The translations under genes and the position numbers were made by a program. A DNA stretch of 20,697 bases from a virus. Below, piece by piece: positions 2,497 to 15,100 of this stretch (positions within the stretch are counted from its first letter, which is position 1; each line of letters begins with the position of its first letter). The notes under the pieces were generated by a model. It ran no database searches. It saw nothing but the letters and a program-made list of their open reading frames with translations, and was not told the DNA's origin. The stretch is taken from IMG/VR virus record IMGVR_UViG_3300017914_002709, positions 1 through 20,697 of that record. One strand, given 5' to 3'.

Positions 2497-3150
2497 TTAT
2501 TTAGAAACTTTGTAGCCTGCTGCTTTGAGTTTGTCAATTGCAGCTTGTGTTTCTGCATCAGGTGCTGCTCTTTGTGATTTGAAACTGCCTTTAGGTTCAT
2601 CACCTTGAGCAAATCTACTTTTGTCAAAGCCGGCTGCACCGCCATAACCTTTTGCCACAACCTGTTTGATAATGTCTTTAACTTCACGCTTGGTGAGAAT
2701 GTCACCTGGCTCGGCTTCGTACATGCTTTGATTGATTTGATCTGCAGGAACAACACCACTTGCATTTTTCACAGCCGACGCAGCTTTTTGTGCGCCAACT
2801 TTGGCCATACCGCCAAGTTTAGCTGCTGCATCTCCTGCTGCTTTCATCTTGTCCGCACGTCCTTGCTTACGTGCTGCCTTCTTCATGCCTTTGGTTTGAT
2901 ATTGACCAACAATTGACTGTGCAATATCACCAAGTCCTTTTTGATCAAAGTACTTCATTACAGCATCAGCAGTTGCTTTTTGCTTTGATGTTTTTAGATA
3001 TGTCAGTAATTCAACTTCCATCTGACGTGCTTCATCTTTAGTAGCACCTTTAGCAGCCTTTTTGGCTTGCTTCATCATTTTTGCTTTTTTAGTGAATGGA
3101 ATTGCTTCTTCCAATTCATTTTGTTCTGCTATAATCTGAAATACTTGCAT
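2497..3150 (-). CDS. Hypothetical Lys/Ala-rich late protein, possible internal head protein
   Basis: 217-aa ORF with SD AAGGA and perfect TATAAATA at 3181-3188. Acidic N-terminus (MQVFQIIAEQNELEEA) followed by a basic, Ala-rich body. Confidence 0.7.
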   Translation of the reverse strand: MQVFQIIAEQNELEEAIPFTKKAKMMKQAKKAAKGATKDEARQMEVELLTYLKTSKQKATADAVMKYFDQKGLGDIAQSIVGQYQTKGMKKAARKQGRADKMKAAGDAAAKLGGMAKVGAQKAASAVKNASGVVPADQINQSMYEAEPGDILTKREVKDIIKQVVAKGYGGAAGFDKSRFAQGDEPKGSFKSQRAAPDAETQAAIDKLKAAGYKVSK

Positions 3151-3180
3151 GTTAGTAGTCCTTAAATGTGTTGTTATTAT

Positions 3181-3188
3181 TATTTATA
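3181..3188 (-). promoter_or_regulatory. T4 late promoter TATAAATA
   Basis: Exact consensus 30 nt upstream of ATG 3150; a gp55 homolog is in the window. Confidence 0.8.
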
Positions 3189-3194
3189 CATTTA

Positions 3195-3269
3195 AGATGA
3201 ACTAACGTTCATCTGTGTTATCGCTATCGCTCAACACATAATTTTTTTATTATTAAGTGCGAAGCACTT
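3195..3269. repeat. Cluster of three adjacent short hairpins
   Basis: AGATGAAC-taac-GTTCATCT (3195-3214); TGTGTT..cgctatcgc..AACACA (3214-3238); AAGTGC-gaa-GCACTT (3255-3269). Confidence 0.75.
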
Positions 3270-3668
3270 TAGTTTCATGTAGATCGTTTTGGTCAGACGG
3301 AACCTCTTGTAAGGTTCCACCTTCTCAAGCTTCATGTGAGTCATGATCGGCCGAGATCGGAAGTAGGTTTTTGTTTATACTGCTACGCAACGGGCTCTGA
3401 CCTTTCCCAACCTACGTCGACATCATACGCTATACCGTATATTTGAACAATATACGTTACACCGTATTATCCCCCGCTTCGTTCCTAGTGCTAAGGGTTT
3501 TTATGCGTAATGTGCAGTTTTTCGACAGCCAACAATCTATCTATACCGACGGATACTGGAATGGTAATGGTTAACCTACATCAGTCCATTAGTATGTTGC
3601 GTGTCCTATATCTCTATAGGTTTTTTCACAGCGGAATTATTAAACTGGCCCGCTAACCTTATGTGTTG
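3232..3668 (-). ncRNA. Candidate large structured non-coding RNA (~437 nt), family not recognised
   Basis: No ORF in the track. Perfect 10-bp terminal inverted repeat (3232-3241/3659-3668), many helices, CCUAUA-GAGA-UAUAGG GNRA hairpin, G-U pairs that work only on the minus strand, and a 7-bp pseudoknot GGUCAGA/UCUGACC. Confidence 0.7.
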
Positions 3669-3680
3669 GTTATTTGCCTA

Positions 3681-3989
3681 TTATATTTTGATTTGGCCTG
3701 TGTTGTAACGTCTAATCAGTTCGTTATTAGCTGCATGTTTTAAATGTTTTGATTTAAAATTTAAACCTGCCCATACAAGATACTTTTCGTTTAAGTCTTT
3801 TATCTTTGTGCCTGCATGGTTGCCTGTAGGCCAAACGCCTTGTTCTAATAATTTGATTTCGTTACTAACATTTTGTTTGTAATTGAAATATTTGTCTTGT
3901 CTTGCACTTGCTTCGTGTCGTTGTGACGCAACTGCTTCGCCTGTGAGCTTTGAATCTTTTGCCTTTTTCCAATCAAGACTTCTTGACAT
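3681..3989 (-). CDS. Small protein with an exonuclease-X C-terminal/DUF3820-like motif
   Basis: VWPTGNHAGTKIKDLNEKYLVWA matches the [MF]PFGK[HY]KG..I.DLP..YL.W pattern; overlaps the GIY-YIG gene end by 17 nt. Confidence 0.55.
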   Translation of the reverse strand: MSRSLDWKKAKDSKLTGEAVASQRHEASARQDKYFNYKQNVSNEIKLLEQGVWPTGNHAGTKIKDLNEKYLVWAGLNFKSKHLKHAANNELIRRYNTGQIKI

Positions 3990-4407
3990 GTTCTAACAAT
4001 GCTTTCCTAAGTTTATTAGACCCACCAACTCTTACATTGATGATACCATTATAGTATTCGTCTGTTTCTAATACACGCCTATCAAACTGTTCTCGTGCTT
4101 CAATGTAGCTCATTTCCGCTCTACTCTTGCAAAAGTAAAGTATTTCACGAGAAAATTTGTCTTCGCCTAAGTTTTTAACATCTTCGTTCAGTCTATCTGA
4201 ACTTCCCCAGTATTCACGCCAATCTGATTCTTTATATCCGCGGCGTTTGTTCTTTTTGCCTTTAAGTGGTGGCTTTGTTGTTTTAAACTTTGCTAATTTT
4301 TTGCCTATATACTTGCGATTGTCAGTCAAGTTGGTAATCAAATAAACAAATCCTTCATATTCATCTGATATTTCTGTGATTTGCTCACCTTGATATGTCC
4401 AACTCAT
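3973..4407 (-). CDS. Stand-alone GIY-YIG family endonuclease
   Basis: GFVYLITNLTDNRKYIGKK (GIY-x10-YIG), YWGSS, conserved Glu (YIEAREQ), YYN. 144 aa with no appended DNA-binding domain. Confidence 0.85.
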   Translation of the reverse strand: MSWTYQGEQITEISDEYEGFVYLITNLTDNRKYIGKKLAKFKTTKPPLKGKKNKRRGYKESDWREYWGSSDRLNEDVKNLGEDKFSREILYFCKSRAEMSYIEAREQFDRRVLETDEYYNGIINVRVGGSNKLRKALLEHVKKS

Positions 4408-4414
4408 ACTTTAA

Positions 4415-4660
4415 TTACTTGTTGGCCTTTACTTCCCTTGCCTTTTTTGGATTATTGTTCTTTCTGCCGTCTTGTACATGCCTAATGTGTTCTTCCATTA
4501 TCTCATCACGTCTCACTTTGCAGAGATCACGCAGTTCGCCTAGCTTTTTGCGAACCTTTCTGCGTTTTAACTCTGCAGGACGCTGTTGGAATATTTCATT
4601 GAGTGCGAAATAATCCAATACTGCCTTGATTATCTTGTCATGTGTGTCGTCTTCGTTCAT
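4415..4660 (-). CDS. Small basic helical protein, possibly Hc1 (histone H1-like) family
   Basis: THDKIIKAVLDY...NE.F...RRKVRKKLGELRDLCKVRRDEI resembles phage Hc1-like proteins; start overlaps the gp46 stop (ATGA). Confidence 0.45.
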   Translation of the reverse strand: MNEDDTHDKIIKAVLDYFALNEIFQQRPAELKRRKVRKKLGELRDLCKVRRDEIMEEHIRHVQDGRKNNNPKKAREVKANK

Positions 4661-6435
4661 TCTACTATTTCAATATCGTTCTCATATGTGGTAAAGCCGT
4701 TTTCTTTAACAACTTTTAATACATTATTCACTCTGCCTACTAGTTCGTCCTTGTGACTGATCAAGAACACGTTCTTATCACGTTCTCTAGTCATCTTTTT
4801 CAGTATGCCTATGCTGTTTTCTACTCCAGCAGTGTCCATTCCGCTGTCAATCAACTCATCAATGAACAATAAGTTGATGTTTTGGTATAAACTCTCCCAA
4901 ACATCACGGAAAGCAAAGCTAAGACCGAGAATTAACCTATTTCGTTCACCACGTGACAGGTTATCAAAGTCTAAATCTTGTCCTAACTGTGTAATTTCTA
5001 CGTTTAGGTCGTTTTGGAACACCACTTGATGTGGTAAGCCTATTTTATCTAAGTAATATGTGAGCCTTGCGTTCAAATATGCCAAGTTTTGGTCAATAAT
5101 CTTCTTTCTAATGAAAGAATCTTTGTTTGTCAACAGTTTCAACAGAAACTCTTGGTGTTCTTTAAAACTAGTCAACTGATTCACTGTTGTCCAGTCTATT
5201 TCTTGCAGTGCTGTATTGGTTAAGTCGTCAATCTGTGCCTGATAAGGGTCTTCTTCTTGCGTTTTACTTACCAATGTTTGCTTTAAGTTATCTACGTTGT
5301 TTCTATGTTCATATGCTTCACGTGCAGTTTCGTAAAAAGTGTTGGGTCTACCATTGATATCACCAATTTCGTCCAAGTTCTTTACTACACCTTCTAGTTT
5401 CACAGATACTTCCGTCTGATATGCCATACTATCCTGTAGATCTTTGGTTTTTGTGGCAAGAATCTCTGCTTTTTTGTCTTCATGCAGTGCTTGTCCACAG
5501 GTGTAGCAGGTTGCATCGTCTAATTCGGCAATATCCTTCTCTGCTTTCTCTACACTCTTGTTTGCTCGCATCAATGCACTGTCTAATGTAGCTCTTTCCT
5601 TGTTCAATGCAGTAATTGCAGCATTCAACTCGTTCCAATTAGCCAATTTATCGTGATTATCTAGTTCTTTTTCAATATCCAGCTTCTCTAGTTCGTCAAT
5701 TCCTGACTCTAACCGTTCAATATCGCTTTTTTGCTTGCTATTCCATGCTTTTTGTCTTCTAATCAACGAATCGATGCTGGTTTGAATGTTTTCATTGCTG
5801 GCTTTCACTGCATCAATGCGCATGTTCTCTTCTGTGATAGCATCTTTGGTAGTTCTTACCTGTTCTTTCAGCATATTTGCTTTTTCACTGAGCAAAGTAA
5901 TGCCTAACAGTTGTTCAATGATCTCTCTTTGATCATTTGTACGCATACTGAGGAAAGGTTCGGTATATGTATTGAGTGCAACCACATGTTTAAACATGTT
6001 ATGGCTCATACCCAATAGATCTTGTATACTTTCCTGTGTTTTTCTACTATCACCTTGGCTATTATCGTCAAATTCGTCACTTTGATCTTGATCATTGATG
6101 TAAAACTTCAGTACATTAGGTGATCTACCACGTTCGATGCGATACTTGTTGCCGTTTTTCTCAAAATTTAGGGTGACCAACATACCTTTAGAGTTTGTCT
6201 TGTTGATAAGATTGTTTCTCTTGATGTTGGTCAGTGCTTGGCCGTACAAGGCATAGGATAATGCATTGATTATCGTAGTTTTACCCGTACCGTTGCGTGA
6301 TCCTGAATCGTCACCTCCTTGGTCTAAGTTTTCACCAAGCACTAGAGTGAGTTGATCTTCTTCAAAATCAACTGCTTGGGTAACATTACCCACACTCATA
6401 AAGTTTTTAACTGTTAAATCTTTGATTTTTATCAT
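4657..6435 (-). CDS. gp46: Recombination endonuclease ATPase subunit (Rad50/SbcC-like, T4 gp46)
   Basis: KNFMSVGN, Walker A GSRNGTGKTT, coiled coil with CYTC zinc hook, LSRGE signature, Walker B LLFIDE, ISH loop. Confidence 0.95.
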   Translation of the reverse strand: MIKIKDLTVKNFMSVGNVTQAVDFEEDQLTLVLGENLDQGGDDSGSRNGTGKTTIINALSYALYGQALTNIKRNNLINKTNSKGMLVTLNFEKNGNKYRIERGRSPNVLKFYINDQDQSDEFDDNSQGDSRKTQESIQDLLGMSHNMFKHVVALNTYTEPFLSMRTNDQREIIEQLLGITLLSEKANMLKEQVRTTKDAITEENMRIDAVKASNENIQTSIDSLIRRQKAWNSKQKSDIERLESGIDELEKLDIEKELDNHDKLANWNELNAAITALNKERATLDSALMRANKSVEKAEKDIAELDDATCYTCGQALHEDKKAEILATKTKDLQDSMAYQTEVSVKLEGVVKNLDEIGDINGRPNTFYETAREAYEHRNNVDNLKQTLVSKTQEEDPYQAQIDDLTNTALQEIDWTTVNQLTSFKEHQEFLLKLLTNKDSFIRKKIIDQNLAYLNARLTYYLDKIGLPHQVVFQNDLNVEITQLGQDLDFDNLSRGERNRLILGLSFAFRDVWESLYQNINLLFIDELIDSGMDTAGVENSIGILKKMTRERDKNVFLISHKDELVGRVNNVLKVVKENGFTTYENDIEIVE

Positions 6436-7445
6436 TCTAATCCGTTGTATATTTCTAGTAACAACGATTTGTCAAAGTTTTCGCTGTCAATTGCAAGTAT
6501 TTCATTGGATACAATTTGATCTACACTTTCAAACTGTTCGATATCCAAATCAGTGTTTATTTCTTCAATGGTTTTCTGTGGAATAAGAGTTATTTCACGA
6601 CAACCATATTCGTTCATAAACGTTTCTTTAATAAAGGTTGCTTCCTCAAAGCTGATTGGCAAGTCTAGTGTAACTCTTAGGTACATTTTACTTTTAATCA
6701 ATGTATCCTTTTCATCAATCAGCTGAGAAAGTCTTACTGTTCTATACTTTGGACAATCAGTCCAGTTAATGTATTCAGGTTCTACATTGTTTTCTCTATC
6801 CAATACCATCATACCACGGTCATCGTCCCACGCATCAGCATAATTGTGCGGAAATGCATTGCCAATATAGTGTACATTCTTCTGACTTTGACGTTTGTGG
6901 AAGTGTCCAGTAAACACATATTCTGGTTTTGTGAGATTCTCGGCTCTAAGTTCGCCGTGATCTGGCATTCTCACCATTGCATTCATTAAAAAGTTTGGTA
7001 ATTCAAAGTGACCAAACATGTATTTGCAGTCCAGTGCTGCAACCTTCTTCCATTCGTCACTGACCATCCACGGTACAAGTGCAACATCTTCGATCTGTTG
7101 AATATCATCAACAACAGTTACACCTGGAATGTGCTTTGCCCATTCTGTACTTTTAATATCACGCTTGTCTTTGAAATACAAGTCATGGTTACCAGCAAAC
7201 ATAAAGAACTGGTCAAATGCTGCACCTAGCTTCTCTAAACTGCGGATACCAGCATCCATTGTAGTTAAATTTAAACTGTTTCGATTGTGATTCCAGTCAC
7301 CACAGAAGATTGCAGTTTCGCAACCTTGTTCTTTTGCTGTTTCGATAAACCAATCCACGTATTCTTCACAGTCTGTGTTGTGAATACGTGAATTACCCTT
7401 CATACCAAAGTGAATATCAGTGAATACTGCTGCTTTTTTAAACAA
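6432..7445 (-). CDS. gp47: Recombination nuclease subunit (Mre11/SbcD-like, T4 gp47)
   Basis: Metallophosphoesterase motifs DIH, GD, GNHD, GHF, GHFH; TTG start with GGAG SD; adjacent to gp46. Confidence 0.95.
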   Translation of the reverse strand: MFKKAAVFTDIHFGMKGNSRIHNTDCEEYVDWFIETAKEQGCETAIFCGDWNHNRNSLNLTTMDAGIRSLEKLGAAFDQFFMFAGNHDLYFKDKRDIKSTEWAKHIPGVTVVDDIQQIEDVALVPWMVSDEWKKVAALDCKYMFGHFELPNFLMNAMVRMPDHGELRAENLTKPEYVFTGHFHKRQSQKNVHYIGNAFPHNYADAWDDDRGMMVLDRENNVEPEYINWTDCPKYRTVRLSQLIDEKDTLIKSKMYLRVTLDLPISFEEATFIKETFMNEYGCREITLIPQKTIEEINTDLDIEQFESVDQIVSNEILAIDSENFDKSLLLEIYNGLE

Positions 7446-7502: not shown

Positions 7503-8327
7503 TTATTTTTTCTCTGATTCTCTACGAACTGCGGCTTCCCATTCACCTTGATGCAATCTAGTGTAACTTGGATTTAAGTCATTCATTTCAAGTATATCAT
7601 CTCTAATGTTTTGATTGCGCTTTTCAAGATTAATAACACGTACAAAGCTGTTTGTAACGGCTGCTGTGTAATAAGCAAATGGGTTTTGTGATTTACTTTC
7701 ATCAAATTGCAAACCAATCTGCGATAATTGCAAAATTGCTTGCCCTTTCATTTCGTCATTGTAAGTATAACCACGTACATTGCCCCTTGTGGCATATCTA
7801 TCTACCAATTTCATCCACATTTTAGCAAGTTCGTTTGTTGCTCTGCCGTGCTCTAGGCTGAAATATCCATTTTCCATGCCACCTGTCCAATGACTTTTGC
7901 CTACACATACCAAATTGTCGTCTTCGTCAAACTTGTAGTGTTGATAAGGAGGAAATGGCAATTTTACTTTGTGATCTGCAACTGTTTTTGGATTTTTCTT
8001 ACGTCCAGGTTCGTCTGGAATATGTTCAAATGTCATAACACGAAAAATTAATTCGTTCTTTTCAATTGTTTTGTAATCAATTTCACAGTCTGCAACTTTT
8101 ACACGCTTGCCATCTGCTTTGGCTTGTTCGTATGCAGCTTGTGATAATTTTTTTGCTTTGTTTCTTTTTGCTTCTGCAATAGTTCTAATGTTGATTTTTT
8201 CAACGCCTGGTAAAATAATATCGTAGTTTGCAAATGATGGTTCGATAAAACTGCTATAATTTATTTTACTCTTGTGTATCTCAGCCAACATGTCTTTGTT
8301 GTTGAGGTATTTTACTCTTCTTGCCAT
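7503..8327 (-). CDS. gp55: Late-transcription sigma factor (T4 gp55-like), 274 aa
   Basis: YLNNKDM..., YTYNDEM...FDESKSQNPFAYYT..V.NSF.R.I..EK motifs of gp55. True start reassigned to ATG 8327 (AGGAG SD) because the track's 8378 start lies inside the promoter. Confidence 0.9.
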   Translation of the reverse strand: MARRVKYLNNKDMLAEIHKSKINYSSFIEPSFANYDIILPGVEKINIRTIAEAKRNKAKKLSQAAYEQAKADGKRVKVADCEIDYKTIEKNELIFRVMTFEHIPDEPGRKKNPKTVADHKVKLPFPPYQHYKFDEDDNLVCVGKSHWTGGMENGYFSLEHGRATNELAKMWMKLVDRYATRGNVRGYTYNDEMKGQAILQLSQIGLQFDESKSQNPFAYYTAAVTNSFVRVINLEKRNQNIRDDILEMNDLNPSYTRLHQGEWEAAVRRESEKK

Positions 8328-8349
8328 GGAATCTCCTACAGTTGTATTT

Positions 8350-8378
8350 ATTATAATATACGCACATAAGTTTGTCAA
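8350..8378 (-). promoter_or_regulatory. Perfect sigma70 consensus promoter TTGACA-N17-TATAAT for gp55
   Basis: TTGACA 8378-8373, 17-nt spacer, TATAAT 8355-8350; overlapped by TAAATA 8350-8345. Confidence 0.9.
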
Positions 8379-9560: not shown

Positions 9561-12121
9561 GTGTAATTGAAAATCCATTAAACAAATTTTCTAGTTACAA
9601 TTACAAATGGAAATTTGGTTTAGTAAGTGTAGAAAGTATTAATAATCCTGAAAGATATATCAATTCAGGACCTGAGTTAGTATTGATTGAATCAGGCGGT
9701 TCACCGAACAAAACAACAACAACCTATAGCGAAGATGTTCTTGGTGTAAACGTAGAATTTTTTATAGATGATTTTTCTGCTGAATACCTCGTAACACCTA
9801 ATCGAGCAAGTAGTTTTAGCAATGCTATACAAATGGAATTCAAAGTAATTGAGCCATTAAGTGTAGGCTTATTTTTCCAAATATTAAAACAAGGTTGTCA
9901 AGACATGTATGGTGTAAGTCGTGGATATCTTGATGTGCCGTTTGTGCTTGAATGCGATTTTGTTGGATACAACGATGTTGGCGAAATTTCAGGCGGAGCA
10001 GGCAAACATATTTTGGCATTAAAACTTTTAAATGTAACATTCAGTGTTGATACTAGTGGCGCAGTGTACACTGTGACAGCAATTCCTTGGAATCACCAAG
10101 CAATGACAGATCAAGTACAAAGTGTACCAACAGATATTGAAATACAAGGCGACACTGTTGAGGCAATGTTGCAAGGTGGTGAGTTTAGTTTAACTAGTGT
10201 ATTAAACAAGCAACAACAAAAATTAGAAACAAATTCAATTGCAGCAACTAACCAAGCAAGTTATGAAGCTGAAGCATTTGGCGGTACATCAGTAGATACA
10301 CAAAAGATATCTGGAAATAGATATACAATACTATTTCCTCCTTCTGCTGGTGTAAAAACACCTGATGTAAACACATTGACAAGTATGAGACAGCAACGGC
10401 AAAATCTTGCAGTTGGACCAGGAGGTATATTCCAAATTGATACTGCTGCTGAAGCATTTAGAGAAAGAGAAGCACAGATTGCAGGACAATCATATTCATC
10501 ACCGTTTGATTTAGTTCCAAAATCTCCAATCAATATCAGCAGTGCAACAGCAAGTGGTGATGTAAACTACCTTGGATCTAGTAAAATTGTTACAGATTTT
10601 GAAGCATTTGGAACAATACCTTTTGGTTTAGAGGAAAACACAGGTCCTAATTTAGCTGGTAGCAACAATGGTGCAGCATTTGAATTTGATGCAGGTGATA
10701 CAAATGTAGCAGGTGACGAAGTTTACCGAAGAGGTGCTCTCACTATCGATGCAAACACAAGAGTATTCCAATTTCCTGTTGGTACAAAAATTGAAAAAAT
10801 TATTGAGAGTGTTTTATTAGCAAGCGATTGGGGGTTGAGTTTAATTAATCAACAACCTGATGCTGACGGAAACATTTTATGGTTTAAAATTCACACAGAA
10901 TCTAAGATACGTAATATTGACGAAATATTGAACAGTAGAGATTTTGCATATGATTTTACATATATTGTTACACCTTATCTTGTTGATATAAGTGTGATTG
11001 CTCCTGCTTGGAAAGATCAAAATTATACAAACAAGGCAAGGCAAGCGGCAAAAGTTTATAGATACACCTACACTGGATTAAATCAAGATATAATTGATTT
11101 TTCATTTAATATTGACAATGCATTCTATAAGGAAATATACAGAAATCCTAACGGACGTGAGGATGCTTTGAATGCGGGCGGATTAGCTACAGTTTCTAAA
11201 ACTGAAGCATATGCTGGTAATGCTGGTGCAAATGACGGTAGTGGCGACAGCTCATTTGGTACTAAAACCATTACCAAAGGCACAGCACCTAGTCTGACAG
11301 GAAGCGGCGGTACTAGCAGTAAACTAGATACTGCATTGTTGTTCAACGAAGCAGTGCTAAACAGCAGCACTGACATGATTACACTTGATATGAAAATTTG
11401 GGGAGACCCTTATTATTTCATGGATAGTGATGTAGGAAATTGGAGAGCGCAATCATCGAGTAATCCTAATGTTGATAGTAGAGGCAGAATAGATCCTAGC
11501 ACTGGGGAAAATTATGTTTTAATTGAATTTAAAACTGCTGTTGATTATAATGGAAATTTATTACAATTAGATGCTGTAAATAATTTTAGCGGGCTGTACA
11601 AAGTTATAACTTTTACTAATGATTTTAGCGGTGGATTATTTACGCAAACTTTGAATCTTGTGCGTATGCCAAATCAATCTAATGAAAGTGTTGCAAATAG
11701 TAACAAAATTGTAGATGCAAATTACAAAGGCAAATTACCTCTTGTATTGAGTAATTTAGACACAGAAAGTGCAGCACGTAGTGCAGAGTTTGACAAGTTA
11801 GTAAGACAAGCAAATGAATTAGAATCACAAATTACTGCATTCCAAACACAAGGTATACAAAATTTTGATGAAATATTACAAGGCACAGATTTGTTAGATA
11901 TTGCACAAAATCTTGGAGGAGCATTTAATCAAATTGCAAGTTTGCAACGCAATTTAAGCACAGTAATGAATGTTGTGCAAGGAGGATTACCAAATCTTGC
12001 TAGAGGGCTTGCGACTAATGCAATTAATAATACAATTGGAAATACAAAAGCAGGTCGTGCAATAAACAATGTAGTACAAATTAAATCAGACATTGATCGT
12101 ATAAGAGGCGCATTTCGCTAG
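9557..12121 (+). CDS. Baseplate hub protein (gp27/gpD-like), 854 aa
   Basis: C-terminal hub pattern MKIWGDP...FSGLYKV..F...FSGG.FTQTL.L.R; lies between the gp53-like gene and gp5. Confidence 0.6.
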   Translation: MSVIENPLNKFSSYNYKWKFGLVSVESINNPERYINSGPELVLIESGGSPNKTTTTYSEDVLGVNVEFFIDDFSAEYLVTPNRASSFSNAIQMEFKVIEPLSVGLFFQILKQGCQDMYGVSRGYLDVPFVLECDFVGYNDVGEISGGAGKHILALKLLNVTFSVDTSGAVYTVTAIPWNHQAMTDQVQSVPTDIEIQGDTVEAMLQGGEFSLTSVLNKQQQKLETNSIAATNQASYEAEAFGGTSVDTQKISGNRYTILFPPSAGVKTPDVNTLTSMRQQRQNLAVGPGGIFQIDTAAEAFREREAQIAGQSYSSPFDLVPKSPINISSATASGDVNYLGSSKIVTDFEAFGTIPFGLEENTGPNLAGSNNGAAFEFDAGDTNVAGDEVYRRGALTIDANTRVFQFPVGTKIEKIIESVLLASDWGLSLINQQPDADGNILWFKIHTESKIRNIDEILNSRDFAYDFTYIVTPYLVDISVIAPAWKDQNYTNKARQAAKVYRYTYTGLNQDIIDFSFNIDNAFYKEIYRNPNGREDALNAGGLATVSKTEAYAGNAGANDGSGDSSFGTKTITKGTAPSLTGSGGTSSKLDTALLFNEAVLNSSTDMITLDMKIWGDPYYFMDSDVGNWRAQSSSNPNVDSRGRIDPSTGENYVLIEFKTAVDYNGNLLQLDAVNNFSGLYKVITFTNDFSGGLFTQTLNLVRMPNQSNESVANSNKIVDANYKGKLPLVLSNLDTESAARSAEFDKLVRQANELESQITAFQTQGIQNFDEILQGTDLLDIAQNLGGAFNQIASLQRNLSTVMNVVQGGLPNLARGLATNAINNTIGNTKAGRAINNVVQIKSDIDRIRGAFR

Positions 12122-12131
12122 GAGATAATTT

Positions 12132-15100
12132 ATGGTAAAAAAGCCAACTAGAGTTAGTAGAACCAGTGATACAGTTTACACTGATCAGAGTGCTGATTCT
12201 GGCATTTATATTGGACGAGTTGTAAGTCACTTAGATCAAACTTTTATGGGTGCGCTTCGTGTGCAGTTGTTAAAAGTACGTGAAGCAGCTAATGACTTCC
12301 AAGAAGTCGGACAATTGATTACCTGTCATTATGCAAGTCCTTTCGGCGGGCAAACACCTCTACAAGATGTTGGTGCAAACAACACTTATCAAGAAACACA
12401 GCAAAGCTATGGTTTTTGGGCAGTTCCGCCTGATATTGGAACAAAAGTAATTGTAGTAAAAGTAGAAGGTGCAGCAGATTTTGGATATTGGATAGGTTGT
12501 GTAAACGATGATTTTATGAACTTCATGATTCCAGACGGAAGAGCTGCTACAAACAACAACAATGAAGGACAAAAATTACCTGTTGGCGAATACAACAAAG
12601 CATTGGTAGACCCAGATGGTGAATTACAGCCTACTAGATATCCAAAACCAGTGAATACAGATTTTGTAGATGCACTAGCAGAGCAAGGTTTGCTCGAAGA
12701 TGATATTAGAGGTTTAACCAGTAGTAGTGCAAGACGTGAAGTTCCAAGTGCAGTTTTTGGAATGAGTACACCTGGTCCACTGGATAAACGCCCGGGTGCC
12801 CCAAGAAATCCAAGAGGTCCAACTGGCAAAGAAGCTACAATGCCAAGCAGTCGTTTAGGCGGTACCAGTATTGTAATGGACGACGGTGATGATAAAATAT
12901 TACGTGTTGGCAGTGCAGCAGATACACCTAGCGAATATGTGGATATTGAAAACACAGATGCAAATGGCGATATTACAAAACCTGCAAATGAACTGTTTAG
13001 AGTGCGCACACGTACAGGTCATCAGATATTATTACACAACACAGAAGACCTAATTTATATTGGAAATGCTAGAGGTACTAGTTGGATAGAAATGACATCT
13101 AACGGTAAAATTGATATCTATGCAGAAGACAGTATCAGTGTGCATACTAGCCAAGACATAAACTTCAGTGCAGATAGAGACATCAACTTTAATGCCGCTG
13201 CAAACATCAACATGTCAGCAGGTGAAAAAGTCAAAACCACAGCAGGTTCTAGTTTGAATTTTACCAGCGTTGATTATACAGCATTTACCAGTGGTGCAGC
13301 ATTTACTGCAAAAGCAGACAGTTATGCCAGTATTTTCAGTGGTAAAAAACTGAGCATCGAAGGAACTAATAATGTTGATTTGGTTAGCAACAGTGCTAGT
13401 GTGAATATAAGTGCAAGCAAAACTGCAAACATAGCAGGTAAAACAGGTGTAAAAATAGGCAGCGATTCAGACTTGCATTTGAAGTTTGGCGGTAATATTT
13501 TCCAAGAAACAAATGCTTATCATGTAAATTCGCAAGAGTATTTTTTATCTACAAAAGGCGGTATGCATTTGAACAGTGCAGCAGATATGTACCTTACATC
13601 AAAAGTTACTATGAATGTAAAAGGCAAGAGCGCATATCTCACAAGTGTTGGTGGAGATACACATGTCAAAAGTAGTGCAGATATTAAACTTATGGCTGCT
13701 GTAGATTTAAACCAGTATTCAGTAAATAATTTTAGATATACAAGTTCCGCTATTCATGACAAAGCAGAGTCTAGTATTAATGTAGAATCAGCTGGTACAA
13801 TTGATACAAAAGCAGCCACTACATTGACCACACAATCAACTGGTTTGATGAGTTTGAACAGCACAGCAAATATACAGGCATCTGGTGCCCAAATTCATTT
13901 GAACAGTGATGGTAATCCTGCAAGCAGTGCAACTGCTGCAACAGTGGCCAAATCTGCTGTTGGTGCAATCAGTGCAGAAGCAGCAACAATTGCTATCAAA
14001 CCAAATCCAGTTACACCACAAACACCAATTGTGAGTTTGATTGCAAAAATACCAAGCAGAGTTCCACAGCACGAACCTTGGTTGCAACATGAGAATTTGA
14101 ATCCTGCAGAATACACACCTGAAAAAACTAGAGCAGGTGTTGAGAGCGTTGATAGTTTCTCGCAACCAATTCCAGATACGTTTATCAACATTGGGACACG
14201 TGATACTACTGGAACTACAACAGCAAGTGATCGTGGTGGTATAAGTGGATCTCAAAACTTTGTGCCAAGCACTGATGGCGAATATGCAGAAGAAACCTTG
14301 GGCGATTTCAAAGAACTACAACTTGATCAAGTGTATGTTGTTGGTGACGGACATGGTGTAAAAGTAGCAGAAGCAAACGGTTACAAAGGCAGCCCAAGAG
14401 CTGGTGCAACAATTGACCAAATTGCAAAAAATCAAGTTGGCAGAATACCACAAAATACTGTGGTGATTGTGGCGGCAGGTTCAAACAATTGGGATAGCAC
14501 TCCTGCAGAAGTTGCTGGTATTATCCAAGAAGAAATCATTGATCCGTTGCTGCTTAAAAATTGCTATGTAATTGTGCTGGTTCATCCTGATATAAATCTA
14601 GCAGGATCATATGCAAGTACGTATAGCAGCGCAGGATACACATCTAATTACAATGCAGTGAGAAATGCAATTGCAGATTTAAGTGCAAACGGCACAGTCA
14701 CACTATCACAAAATGACATTGACTCTAATGATCCGCAAAAAATATTTGCAACTGATGTTGCGTACAATAGAGTTGCAACAGTTGTAGATCAAGTTTTAGA
14801 TAATGTTGCAGTAGATTCACCGTTTGACAAATTTGAAGGATCGTTTGGTCCGTTGCTTGCTGCTATTAGAATCTGTGAAGTTAGCACTCCTGAACCAAGA
14901 GGTTATGATATTGTGTATGGAGGTATTCCGGATGCAATTAGACCTCCAAGACCAATTACACAGATGAGCATAGATGATGTACTCATTTGGCAAAAAAGCA
15001 TTAGAGGCAGTGTTGTAAGTACAGCATCAGGTGCATATCAGTTTATATATACCACACTAAAAGATCTAGTTGATAGACGCAAAGTTGTACCTCGCAGTGC

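Follow-up and report, generated by a model that had tools for sequence, protein, structure and literature searches.

The window, as we call the 20,697 nucleotides of DNA analyzed here, is the start of a 117,247-bp virus record with an estimated completeness of 32%, and it raises the question of what is specified by the one sizeable gap between its genes. This gap, originally described as the sole long non-coding stretch, covers 3151-3680, and when ORFs of at least 70 amino acids are counted it is the single ORF-free gap of at least 200 nt in the entire contig. The original prediction placed in it a large, ornate RNA encoded on the minus strand, perhaps a GOLLD/ROOL-like RNA or a ribozyme, and possibly undescribed.

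The record codes for T4-like gp46, gp47, late sigma and baseplate proteins, and its nearest cultured relatives, by comparison of gp46 and sigma, are found among the jumbo phages (Phosso, PA5oct, Atu_ph07 and the GAP32/121Q group, for example). The gp46/gp47 pair is the syntenic anchor of the locus, with a similar neighborhood in cultured jumbo phages, and the genes preceding the gap are the following.

3681..3989, minus strand: 102-aa ORF of unknown function (phrog_3628, E 1.7e-5)
3973..4407, minus strand: gene for a minimal SegE-like GIY-YIG nuclease (PF19835, E 1.9e-34)
4657..7445, minus strand: gp46 and gp47 (SbcC/SbcD-like) recombination nuclease genes (phrog_77, phrog_100)
7503-8378: late sigma factor gene

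The 102-aa ORF sits between the nuclease gene and the RNA and is an insertion in a minority of relatives, as judged from the nuclease-to-RNA distance, which is longer in few loci. Near the opposite end of the gap lies TATAAATA (3181..3188, minus strand), a candidate that we take to be a T4-type late promoter box for the downstream gene.

Fold and conservation of the RNA

The minus strand of the element folds with a minimum free energy of -122.8 kcal/mol (z -4.35), a value that none of 100 shuffles equaled, compared with z -1.84 for the plus strand; the RNA body at 3669-3275 taken alone gave z -2.74, and again 0 of 100 shuffles equaled it. In an alignment of 82 homologs with a mean identity of 74%, 16 of the 80 model pairs were at least 95% canonical with at least four concerted changes on the tree, a combination found in 0 of 429 random variable pairs. 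Among the model pairs G-U cells outnumber A-C cells by 650 to 138, and the RNA strand is therefore the minus strand. This strong covariation bears out, as a predicted fold, the proposal of a large minus-strand phage RNA with multiple pseudoknots. The RNA most likely spans 3669-3275, its 3' end being predicted, by analogy with ncRNA004 of phage PA5oct (see below), to lie at the second of two direct repeats. In order along the minus strand, the parts of the element are these.

3275..3669, minus strand: structured RNA body of type A, about 395 nt (shuffle z, covariation)
3529..3669, minus strand: 5' domain closed by P1, with P2, P3/P3a and P4 (covariation of P1 and P4)
3416..3526, minus strand: central domain with P5, the 5' strand of pseudoknot K1 (3517-3503), P6, which carries the GGAA strand of pseudoknot K2, and the variable hairpin P7
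3359..3415, minus strand: P8 and a GGG/CCC hairpin with the loop GGUCAGA (5' strand of pseudoknot K3), with the 3' strands of K1 and K2
3329..3337, minus strand: repeat 1 (core 3337-3332), the inner candidate guide, from its 6-nt identity to repeat 2
3291..3318, minus strand: hairpin P10 and the 3' strand of K3, between the repeats (100% paired)
3272..3280, minus strand: repeat 2 (core 3280-3275), the predicted anchoring site, 57 nt after repeat 1
3255..3269, plus strand: hairpin H0 with a GNA triloop on the template strand (triloop counts, fold)
3239..3254: AT-rich spacer, a candidate unwinding tract (sequence)
3195..3238, minus strand: double hairpin H1 (GA-GC-N-GC-GA loop) and H2 on the non-template strand (motif counts, fold)

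Every complementary stretch named in the original prediction is present in the sequence, and the majority of the helices drawn from them hold up in the 82 homologs: the UAGCGG/CCGCUG hairpin is paired in 99% with 5 concerted changes, CCUAU/AUAGG in 83% with 65, GUAGGU/ACCUAC (P8) in 100% with 1, GGAACC/GGUUCC (P10) in 100% with 2, GUCGA/UCGAC (P5) in 88% with none, and the GGG/CCC hairpin is 100% paired and invariant. The long variable hairpin was upheld at its base (79% paired, 48 concerted changes), but its core is not alignable. The predicted pseudoknot between GGUCAGA and UCUGACC, K3, can pair in all 82 homologs, but no two-sided change was seen in them, and among the further variants 4 loci have a G-U pair, 5 near-identical loci have the helix broken by G-G, and in 2 loci it is weakened; since these are one-sided and some of them break a pair, K3 is plausible and short of proven.

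Four other predicted pairings did not hold up. The supposed closing helix 3668-3659/3241-3232 is paired in 56% of the homologs, and the 5' end pairs instead with 3534-3529 to form P1 (3669-3664/3534-3529), which is 100% paired with 22 concerted changes. CAACA/UGUUG is 95% pairable but has no concerted changes and competes with the true partner, AUACU/AGUAU is paired in 32% and AAUGG/CCAUU in 61% or 36%, and the last 40 nt at the 3' end, included in the RNA as first drawn, are separate hairpins. Besides P1, the alignment added P4 (3595-3591/3547-3543; 98% paired, 41 concerted changes), the long-range pseudoknot K1b (3508-3503/3390-3385; 84% paired, 43 concerted changes) and K2, in which GGAA at 3485-3482 pairs with UUCC at 3362-3359; K2 is 100% paired and invariant in the homologs, with a two-sided change in two outlying loci (L471 and L473). 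The segment 3359..3415 as a whole is 100% paired and almost invariant. When further variants of the pseudoknot were scanned for, 31 loci came back, and the repeat module described below was absent from all of them.

Searches of Rfam gave no match near the element at E<=5, nothing relevant in 30 type A-C loci and 16 cultured-phage loci, and no match to the window with the models of GOLLD, ROOL, HEARO, raiA, RNase P, group I/II introns or tmRNA. Several of these RNAs (GOLLD, ROOL, HEARO, raiA, RNase P and the group I/II introns) are similar in size and pseudoknot density. The absence of tRNA, tmRNA, RNase P and intron features, read originally by eye, agrees with these searches and with a negative tRNA/tmRNA search. 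We also considered raiA and rejected it, the model having no match in the contig; the ends of raiA are paired together (PMC10861870 and PMC12968392, each in part), and those of the element are not.

Homologs are plentiful: the element has hundreds of relatives in IMG/VR, and among 80 loci fetched through the nuclease gene 37 match it by nhmmer. Classified by an anchor motif, the same 80 loci comprise 32 of the window's type, type A, 36 of type B, which is a different conserved element at the same position, 11 that are too short and one cut type A element; an estimated 660 stretches contain a 19-nt type A motif. With nhmmer, types B and C find each other in all cases and are thus homologous, whereas the type A core scores against either of them no better than shuffles. 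We discarded the possibility that type B is type A read on the other strand, reverse-complement scores being no better than shuffles.

As to transcription, four RNA runs contained low-depth contigs of relatives in which parts of the element and the flanking genes appear alike, with no information on strand, ends or level. A sigma70-like promoter at 3709-3680 is within chance (7 found against 4.7 +/- 2.1 expected), and a -10-like box lies just upstream in only 2 of 75 relatives; an extended -10 box is found ahead of the element in all 5 of the cultured orthologous loci. Just 5' of the element (3686-3672 in the window) there is an AGGC motif, shared by 67 of 75 type A relatives and visible by eye 5' of types B and C, which may be a promoter or processing signal.

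Matched repeats and downstream hairpins

The covariation analysis also revealed alignment columns 57 nt apart that co-vary by identity and not by complementarity. These columns are two direct repeats, absent from the original prediction, of which repeat 1 lies inside the fold and repeat 2 at its 3' edge. The first 6 nt are the same in both copies of every element, in all 116 of type A, all 22 of type B and all 48 of type C (186 of 186), all located through anchors other than the repeats, with one locus left unparsed, and at least 17 different hexamers occur among the pairs. On trees built without the repeat columns, 14 changes at positions 1-6 in type A and 24 in type C hit both copies in all 38 cases. 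A further 22 elements were found through the matching-repeat pattern itself and are excluded from the 186 and from the permutation test described below, at most two of them entering the type A tree and at most one the type C tree. Eight of eight additional loci agree in the match and contribute two new repeat sequences. The simple pattern of the module occurs exactly once each in the genomes G000, G001 and G005 (complete, 347 kb), at the element. The type A repeats are spaced 51-68 nt apart, the spacing being a multiple of three in 30 of 116, and that of the window equals 19 codons; they follow a loose pattern ending in TRA, with a fixed CTC preceding repeat 1 and a fixed TCT preceding repeat 2.

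What keeps the two copies alike? No consistent complement to the repeats was found within -450..+400 nt, and several of the hexamers lack self-complementarity, which leaves the repeats unable to pair with each other or elsewhere in the RNA. With no complement in the RNA, the likeliest partner of the inner repeat is the template DNA at the outer repeat, and the template strand is also the most economical one. The tolerated mismatches are consistent with this: at positions 7-9 in 208 elements, 173 are of the kind that would leave a G-T or U-G wobble when repeat 1 is paired to the strand complementary to repeat 2, versus 1 of the reverse kind, while positions 11-13 have 50 forward and 52 reverse. 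At position 9 permutation shows the reverse type to be depleted (1 observed, 6.4 expected; P 0.001; 73 unique patterns), with no enrichment of forward wobbles over independence (14 against 15.6 expected), and the bias at position 8 is accounted for by a nearly fixed G, that is, by composition (P 0.11). The match would comprise 6 strict and about 3 tolerant positions, and from the pattern of sequence change we consider it quite probable that repeat 1 pairs with the complementary strand at repeat 2.

Beyond repeat 2 the hairpins have a marked strand preference. Triloops of the form C-GNA-G are typical of single-stranded DNA hairpins. In H0 of 108 type A elements, GNA triloops are on the antisense strand in 55 and on the sense strand in 3; in H1/H2 the sense to antisense counts are 67:3, 9:0 and 28:0 for types A, B and C. 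The H1 motif, present in 102 of 111 type A, 22 of 22 type B and 36 of 46 type C elements, occurs a single time in the contig, and H1/H2 fold as DNA with -10.1 kcal/mol, compared with -8.4 kcal/mol for the opposite strand. An AT-rich tract separates H0 from H1/H2, and the 30 nt before H1 have 73-78% A+T across types; the G+C content of the contig is itself 33-40%, so that the contrast is modest. H1/H2 are candidates for a single-strand loading signal or a terminator; they could be terminators, and a scan of 3100-4700 for intrinsic terminators found none. In some loci (L084, L153 and L219, for example) the place of H0 is taken by a hairpin of the H1 type on the opposite strand, so that two opposed hairpins flank the AT-rich spacer, an arrangement seen in 4 of 111 type A and 5 of 46 type C elements.

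Counterparts in other phages and neighboring genes

Types A to D, the GAP32-like elements and that of PA5oct were compared as one superfamily, the types of which share position, repeat module and terminal hairpins, with a CCG-N4 pseudoknot as a further possible link. The feature present in the window consists of matched 6-nt repeats 45-100 nt apart around a hairpin, followed by terminal hairpins. Of 90 non-A elements, 83 have the CCG-N4 pseudoknot with its partner downstream, and 10 different pair sets occur among them; in type A the order is reversed, the CCG strand lying 3' of its partner. The window is thus tied to the other subtypes by architecture and synteny only; its downstream gene is found in two type B loci as well.

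The 5' domain is an exchangeable module: different 5' modules stand on the same core in L063, L144, L147 and L149, and loci that are otherwise similar have exchanged 5' modules and core types. Chimeric elements (L149, L063, L144, L147 and L013) carry a type B-like or a third 5' module on a type A or B core, and the domains recombine as cassettes. After the same SegE-like nuclease gene, L462 (1905-2400), L362, L452 and L364 have divergent subtypes with other matched repeats and flanks, outside the standard pattern, and short tandem repeats lie 5' of the element in L462, L150 and L155. A type A element with its own repeat pair is also found two ORFs from the terminase genes of a small phage, G011 (L358:950-1900, the same record as L119; an 8,188-bp fragment, 28% complete) that has terminase and tail-like genes; this phage may be a satellite borrowing the origin of a jumbo phage. 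The complete genome G005 has further ORF-free gaps of 500-650 nt (11948-12498, 102154-102778, 261691-262214, 268255-268899, 303534-304104 and 344237-344842), and none of the six contains the CCG-N4 pseudoknot pattern or the repeat module. Many bacterial MAGs contain such phage loci (L359-L382), one Marinimicrobia bin having two such contigs of 335 and 153 kb; these are probably mis-binned phage DNA, and the MAG loci are therefore weak evidence of hosts.

Among cultured phages a long gap is present at the syntenic position in GAP32, EJP2, PA5oct and Phosso, and none in Atu_ph07 or Vibrio phage 2.275.O. The GAP32 element has relatives in 72 phage records; blastn with types A, C and D gave no match in cultured phages, and a match in the Caulobacter phage CcrBL9, 46 nt between tRNA genes, covers the variable hairpin only and was dismissed. 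GAP32 and EJP2 each have five copies on the same strand that are evenly spaced (P 0.004 and 0.02, the two not being independent of each other), while G000, G001 and G005 have one copy each. None of the 10 cultured-phage copies matches Rfam. Copies within one genome have different repeat pairs, each matched in cis, 9 of the 10 over at least 6 nt and the tenth with a tolerated G/A; a single partner acting in trans would explain such differing pairs poorly. In the Sinorhizobium phage Phosso the gap (L506:3760-4773) is 1 kb long, lies between the Holliday junction resolvase and RNase HI genes, and has a P10-like hairpin and H1-like motifs on both strands; no repeat pair was assigned in it.

In PA5oct a counterpart of the element has an annotated transcript. 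The ncRNA004 of this phage (246116-246734, 619 nt) was annotated from RNA-seq (Lood et al. 2020, PMC7318152), and the part of that paper concerned with the annotation assigns it neither structure nor function. Like the window it has the CCG-N4 pseudoknot pattern, a hairpin between repeats (two CATAAG repeats 63 nt apart) and a terminal hairpin, but no direct sequence match. By this one annotation, with the repeats assigned by pattern, ncRNA004 ends on the last base of its repeat 2. It accounts for 0.08, 0.03 and 0.02% of phage reads in the early, middle and late phases, compared with 1.2-5.1% for ncRNA001 and 002 (PMC7318152, Table 1). The PA5oct copy linked to gp46 is absent from the four annotated ncRNAs.

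A second counterpart is Polynucleobacter-1 (RF01718; Weinberg et al. 2010, PMC2864571), which has been classed as a probable cis-regulatory motif. Of 20 genome loci, 6 have it directly after a SegE-like GIY-YIG gene, as in the window type, and 5 of these 6 run on into a 3' module with two matching repeats around a hairpin, followed by H1/H2 hairpins where the contig is long enough. The position after the nuclease gene and the 3' module are seen in members of the family and lie outside the Rfam definition: the 141-nt model spans the 5' part only. Its first hairpin is similar to P2 by eye, whereas the 5' and central domains of type A differ, and the model (threshold 37 bits) had no match at E<=10 in the window, G000, G001, G005, G010 or G011. 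The element consequently belongs to no Rfam family, while the 5' part of one subtype is RF01718. In the literature searched we found no description of the RNA or its repeats, the search having covered in part the supplements of a study with more than 10,000 candidate viral RNAs (PMC10690425), and Polynucleobacter-1 appears only in the 2010 paper (PMC2864571, main text). The suggestion that the RNA is possibly undescribed thus stands as far as Rfam is concerned, but must be qualified by RF01718 and by ncRNA004, already annotated in PA5oct without a function.

Small nucleases of three unrelated kinds occupy the slot next to the element in different phages: a SegE-like GIY-YIG protein, a RusA-like resolvase or an endonuclease VII (L220, L231, L269, GAP32, EJP2, 121Q and BF). 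Given this interchange, the GIY-YIG protein, labeled 'NAD synthetase' in PHROGs 447, may be a junction resolvase, as the company it keeps suggests.

Possible roles of the element

Since the repeats imply pairing with the complementary strand of their own locus, they point to an RNA that acts in cis; the GOLLD/ROOL-like or ribozyme role first suggested is not supported. A precedent for such an RNA is RNA II of ColE1, in which a run of G residues inside the RNA pairs with a run of C residues in the template close to the origin. [quoted passage not shown] The element resembles it as a folded cis-acting RNA predicted to re-pair with its own template, but its anchor is a variable 6-9-mer in place of a homopolymer, it has three predicted pseudoknots, and its host is a lytic jumbo phage. 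The T4 origins oriF and oriG consist of a promoter and an A+T-rich unwinding element and form R-loops, with no specific sequence needed for R-loop formation and no motif shared among T4 origins (PMC3016281, in part). Here the likeness lies in a T4-like phage, a predicted transcript running into an A+T-rich tract, and several copies, as candidate origins, per genome in cultured relatives; the conserved fold and the matched repeat pair set the element apart.

The proposed action, by analogy with these systems, is of a known kind, an RNA-primed origin. The transcribed minus-strand RNA would fold into its multi-pseudoknot structure, and repeat 1 would re-pair with the template strand at repeat 2 of the same locus. 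The RNA-DNA hybrid in an elongating RNA polymerase is about 10 nt long (PMC5043065, in part), and given that the match of about 9 nt is close to this length, repeat 1 could invade the transcription hybrid as the polymerase passes repeat 2. The polymerase would then be released, or a persistent hybrid begun, with the RNA remaining tethered and its 3' end at or near repeat 2. This end, directly or after trimming by RNase H, would prime the phage DNA polymerase, while the AT-rich tract would open and the displaced strand fold into H1/H2, aiding the loading of helicase or primase. The likeness to ColE1 and T4, the spacing of the copies and the downstream signals make replication priming the most likely purpose; to the proposal in full, that the element anchors an R-loop and most likely primes phage DNA replication in the manner of RNA II, we give an even chance. 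In its favor, the syntenic gap of Phosso is adjoined by an RNase HI gene, and GAP32 and EJP2 both contain PF00075. Against it, third-position GC skew in the complete G005 and in G001 has no switch at the element, no PF00075 RNase H was found in G000, G001 or the complete G005, and these three have a single copy each; the evidence from the five copies and from PA5oct comes, moreover, from subtypes tied to type A by architecture and synteny.

It was also reasonable to consider that repeat 1 just stops the polymerase, as a self-anchoring terminator, and that the RNA is then set free to act in trans, as a scaffold or decoy of the GOLLD/ROOL kind. This would account equally well for the repeats, for the wobble bias and for the 3' end of ncRNA004, the stretch 3100-4700 has no intrinsic terminator, and the fold is far more elaborate than anchoring requires. 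A product acting in trans is, however, difficult to reconcile with the scarcity of ncRNA004 relative to ncRNA001 and 002, and neither the even spacing of five copies nor the strand-specific triloop hairpins would be explained; we regard this alternative as unlikely. Equally, repeat 1 might guide a GIY-YIG, RusA-like or EndoVII nuclease to nick at repeat 2 and so start recombination-dependent replication or module exchange. A GIY-YIG gene is upstream, near gp46/gp47, in 74 of 75 type A loci, and also in 26 of 34 type B/C loci; L220 (172-684, RusA-like), L231 (183-689, RusA-like), GAP32, 121Q, BF and Phosso have a resolvase gene there instead; and 5' modules and core types have been exchanged. 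Yet the nucleases are of three unrelated folds and in either orientation, 8 of the 34 type B/C loci have no GIY-YIG gene within 900 nt, the slot is without a nuclease in the small unrelated phage G011 and at ncRNA004, and in six cultured T4-like phages the GIY-YIG gene is not followed by a long gap. A search of five cultured jumbo phages for PF19835 gave no match, the control being silent there as well, and a structure search with the nuclease found nothing. Where an OMEGA-like system would have one nuclease family always paired with the RNA, here the nuclease is replaced, absent, or present without the gap. The GIY-YIG nuclease is a usual but replaceable neighbor and no obligate partner, and a guided nick appears decidedly improbable.

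The repeats might instead be paired sites for a protein, such as iterons or RNA sites with co-evolving specificity, and require no strand exchange. Their loose TRA-ending pattern and fixed flanks would suit this, and T4 oriE has direct repeats whose role is given as unknown (PMC3016281, in part); against it stand the 38 of 38 tree changes that hit both copies, the different pairs within one genome, and the asymmetry at position 9, which obeys the rules of base pairing, and we think it very unlikely. Finally, a template jump by a DRT2-like reverse transcriptase, or a ribozyme that splices or circularizes the 57-nt piece, would account for direct repeats flanking a structured segment, for the similar motifs preceding both and for a spacing of 19 codons in the window. 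This explanation seems to us the least credible, given that PF00078 is present in 0 of 15 phage records (including the complete G005 and five cultured genomes), that the spacing is in frame in just 30 of 116 elements, that there is no internal complement for splicing, and that no joint across the repeats appeared in the four RNA runs, whose contigs barely cover the repeats.

Replication priming, if correct, makes the element a precise candidate origin for a large group of T4-like jumbo phages, including cultured phages that grow on laboratory strains of E. coli and P. aeruginosa, and would provide a function both for an Rfam motif that has had none since 2010 and for PA5oct ncRNA004. What triggers the persistent hybrid of ColE1 is termed speculative in a review (PMC5043065, in part), and the rules of R-loop formation at origins are counted as open in a review of T4 (PMC3016281, in part). 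With dozens of natural matched mutations available, swap-and-rescue testing is direct. More tentatively, and with the doubt that so broad a claim deserves, the element may represent a widespread class of phage RNA in which a programmable 6-9-nt guide evicts the polymerase and passes the RNA's own 3' end to the replisome. If so, it would constitute an RNA-only replication initiator and a new mode of ending transcription, and the origins of a large group of T4-like jumbo phages would have been identified.
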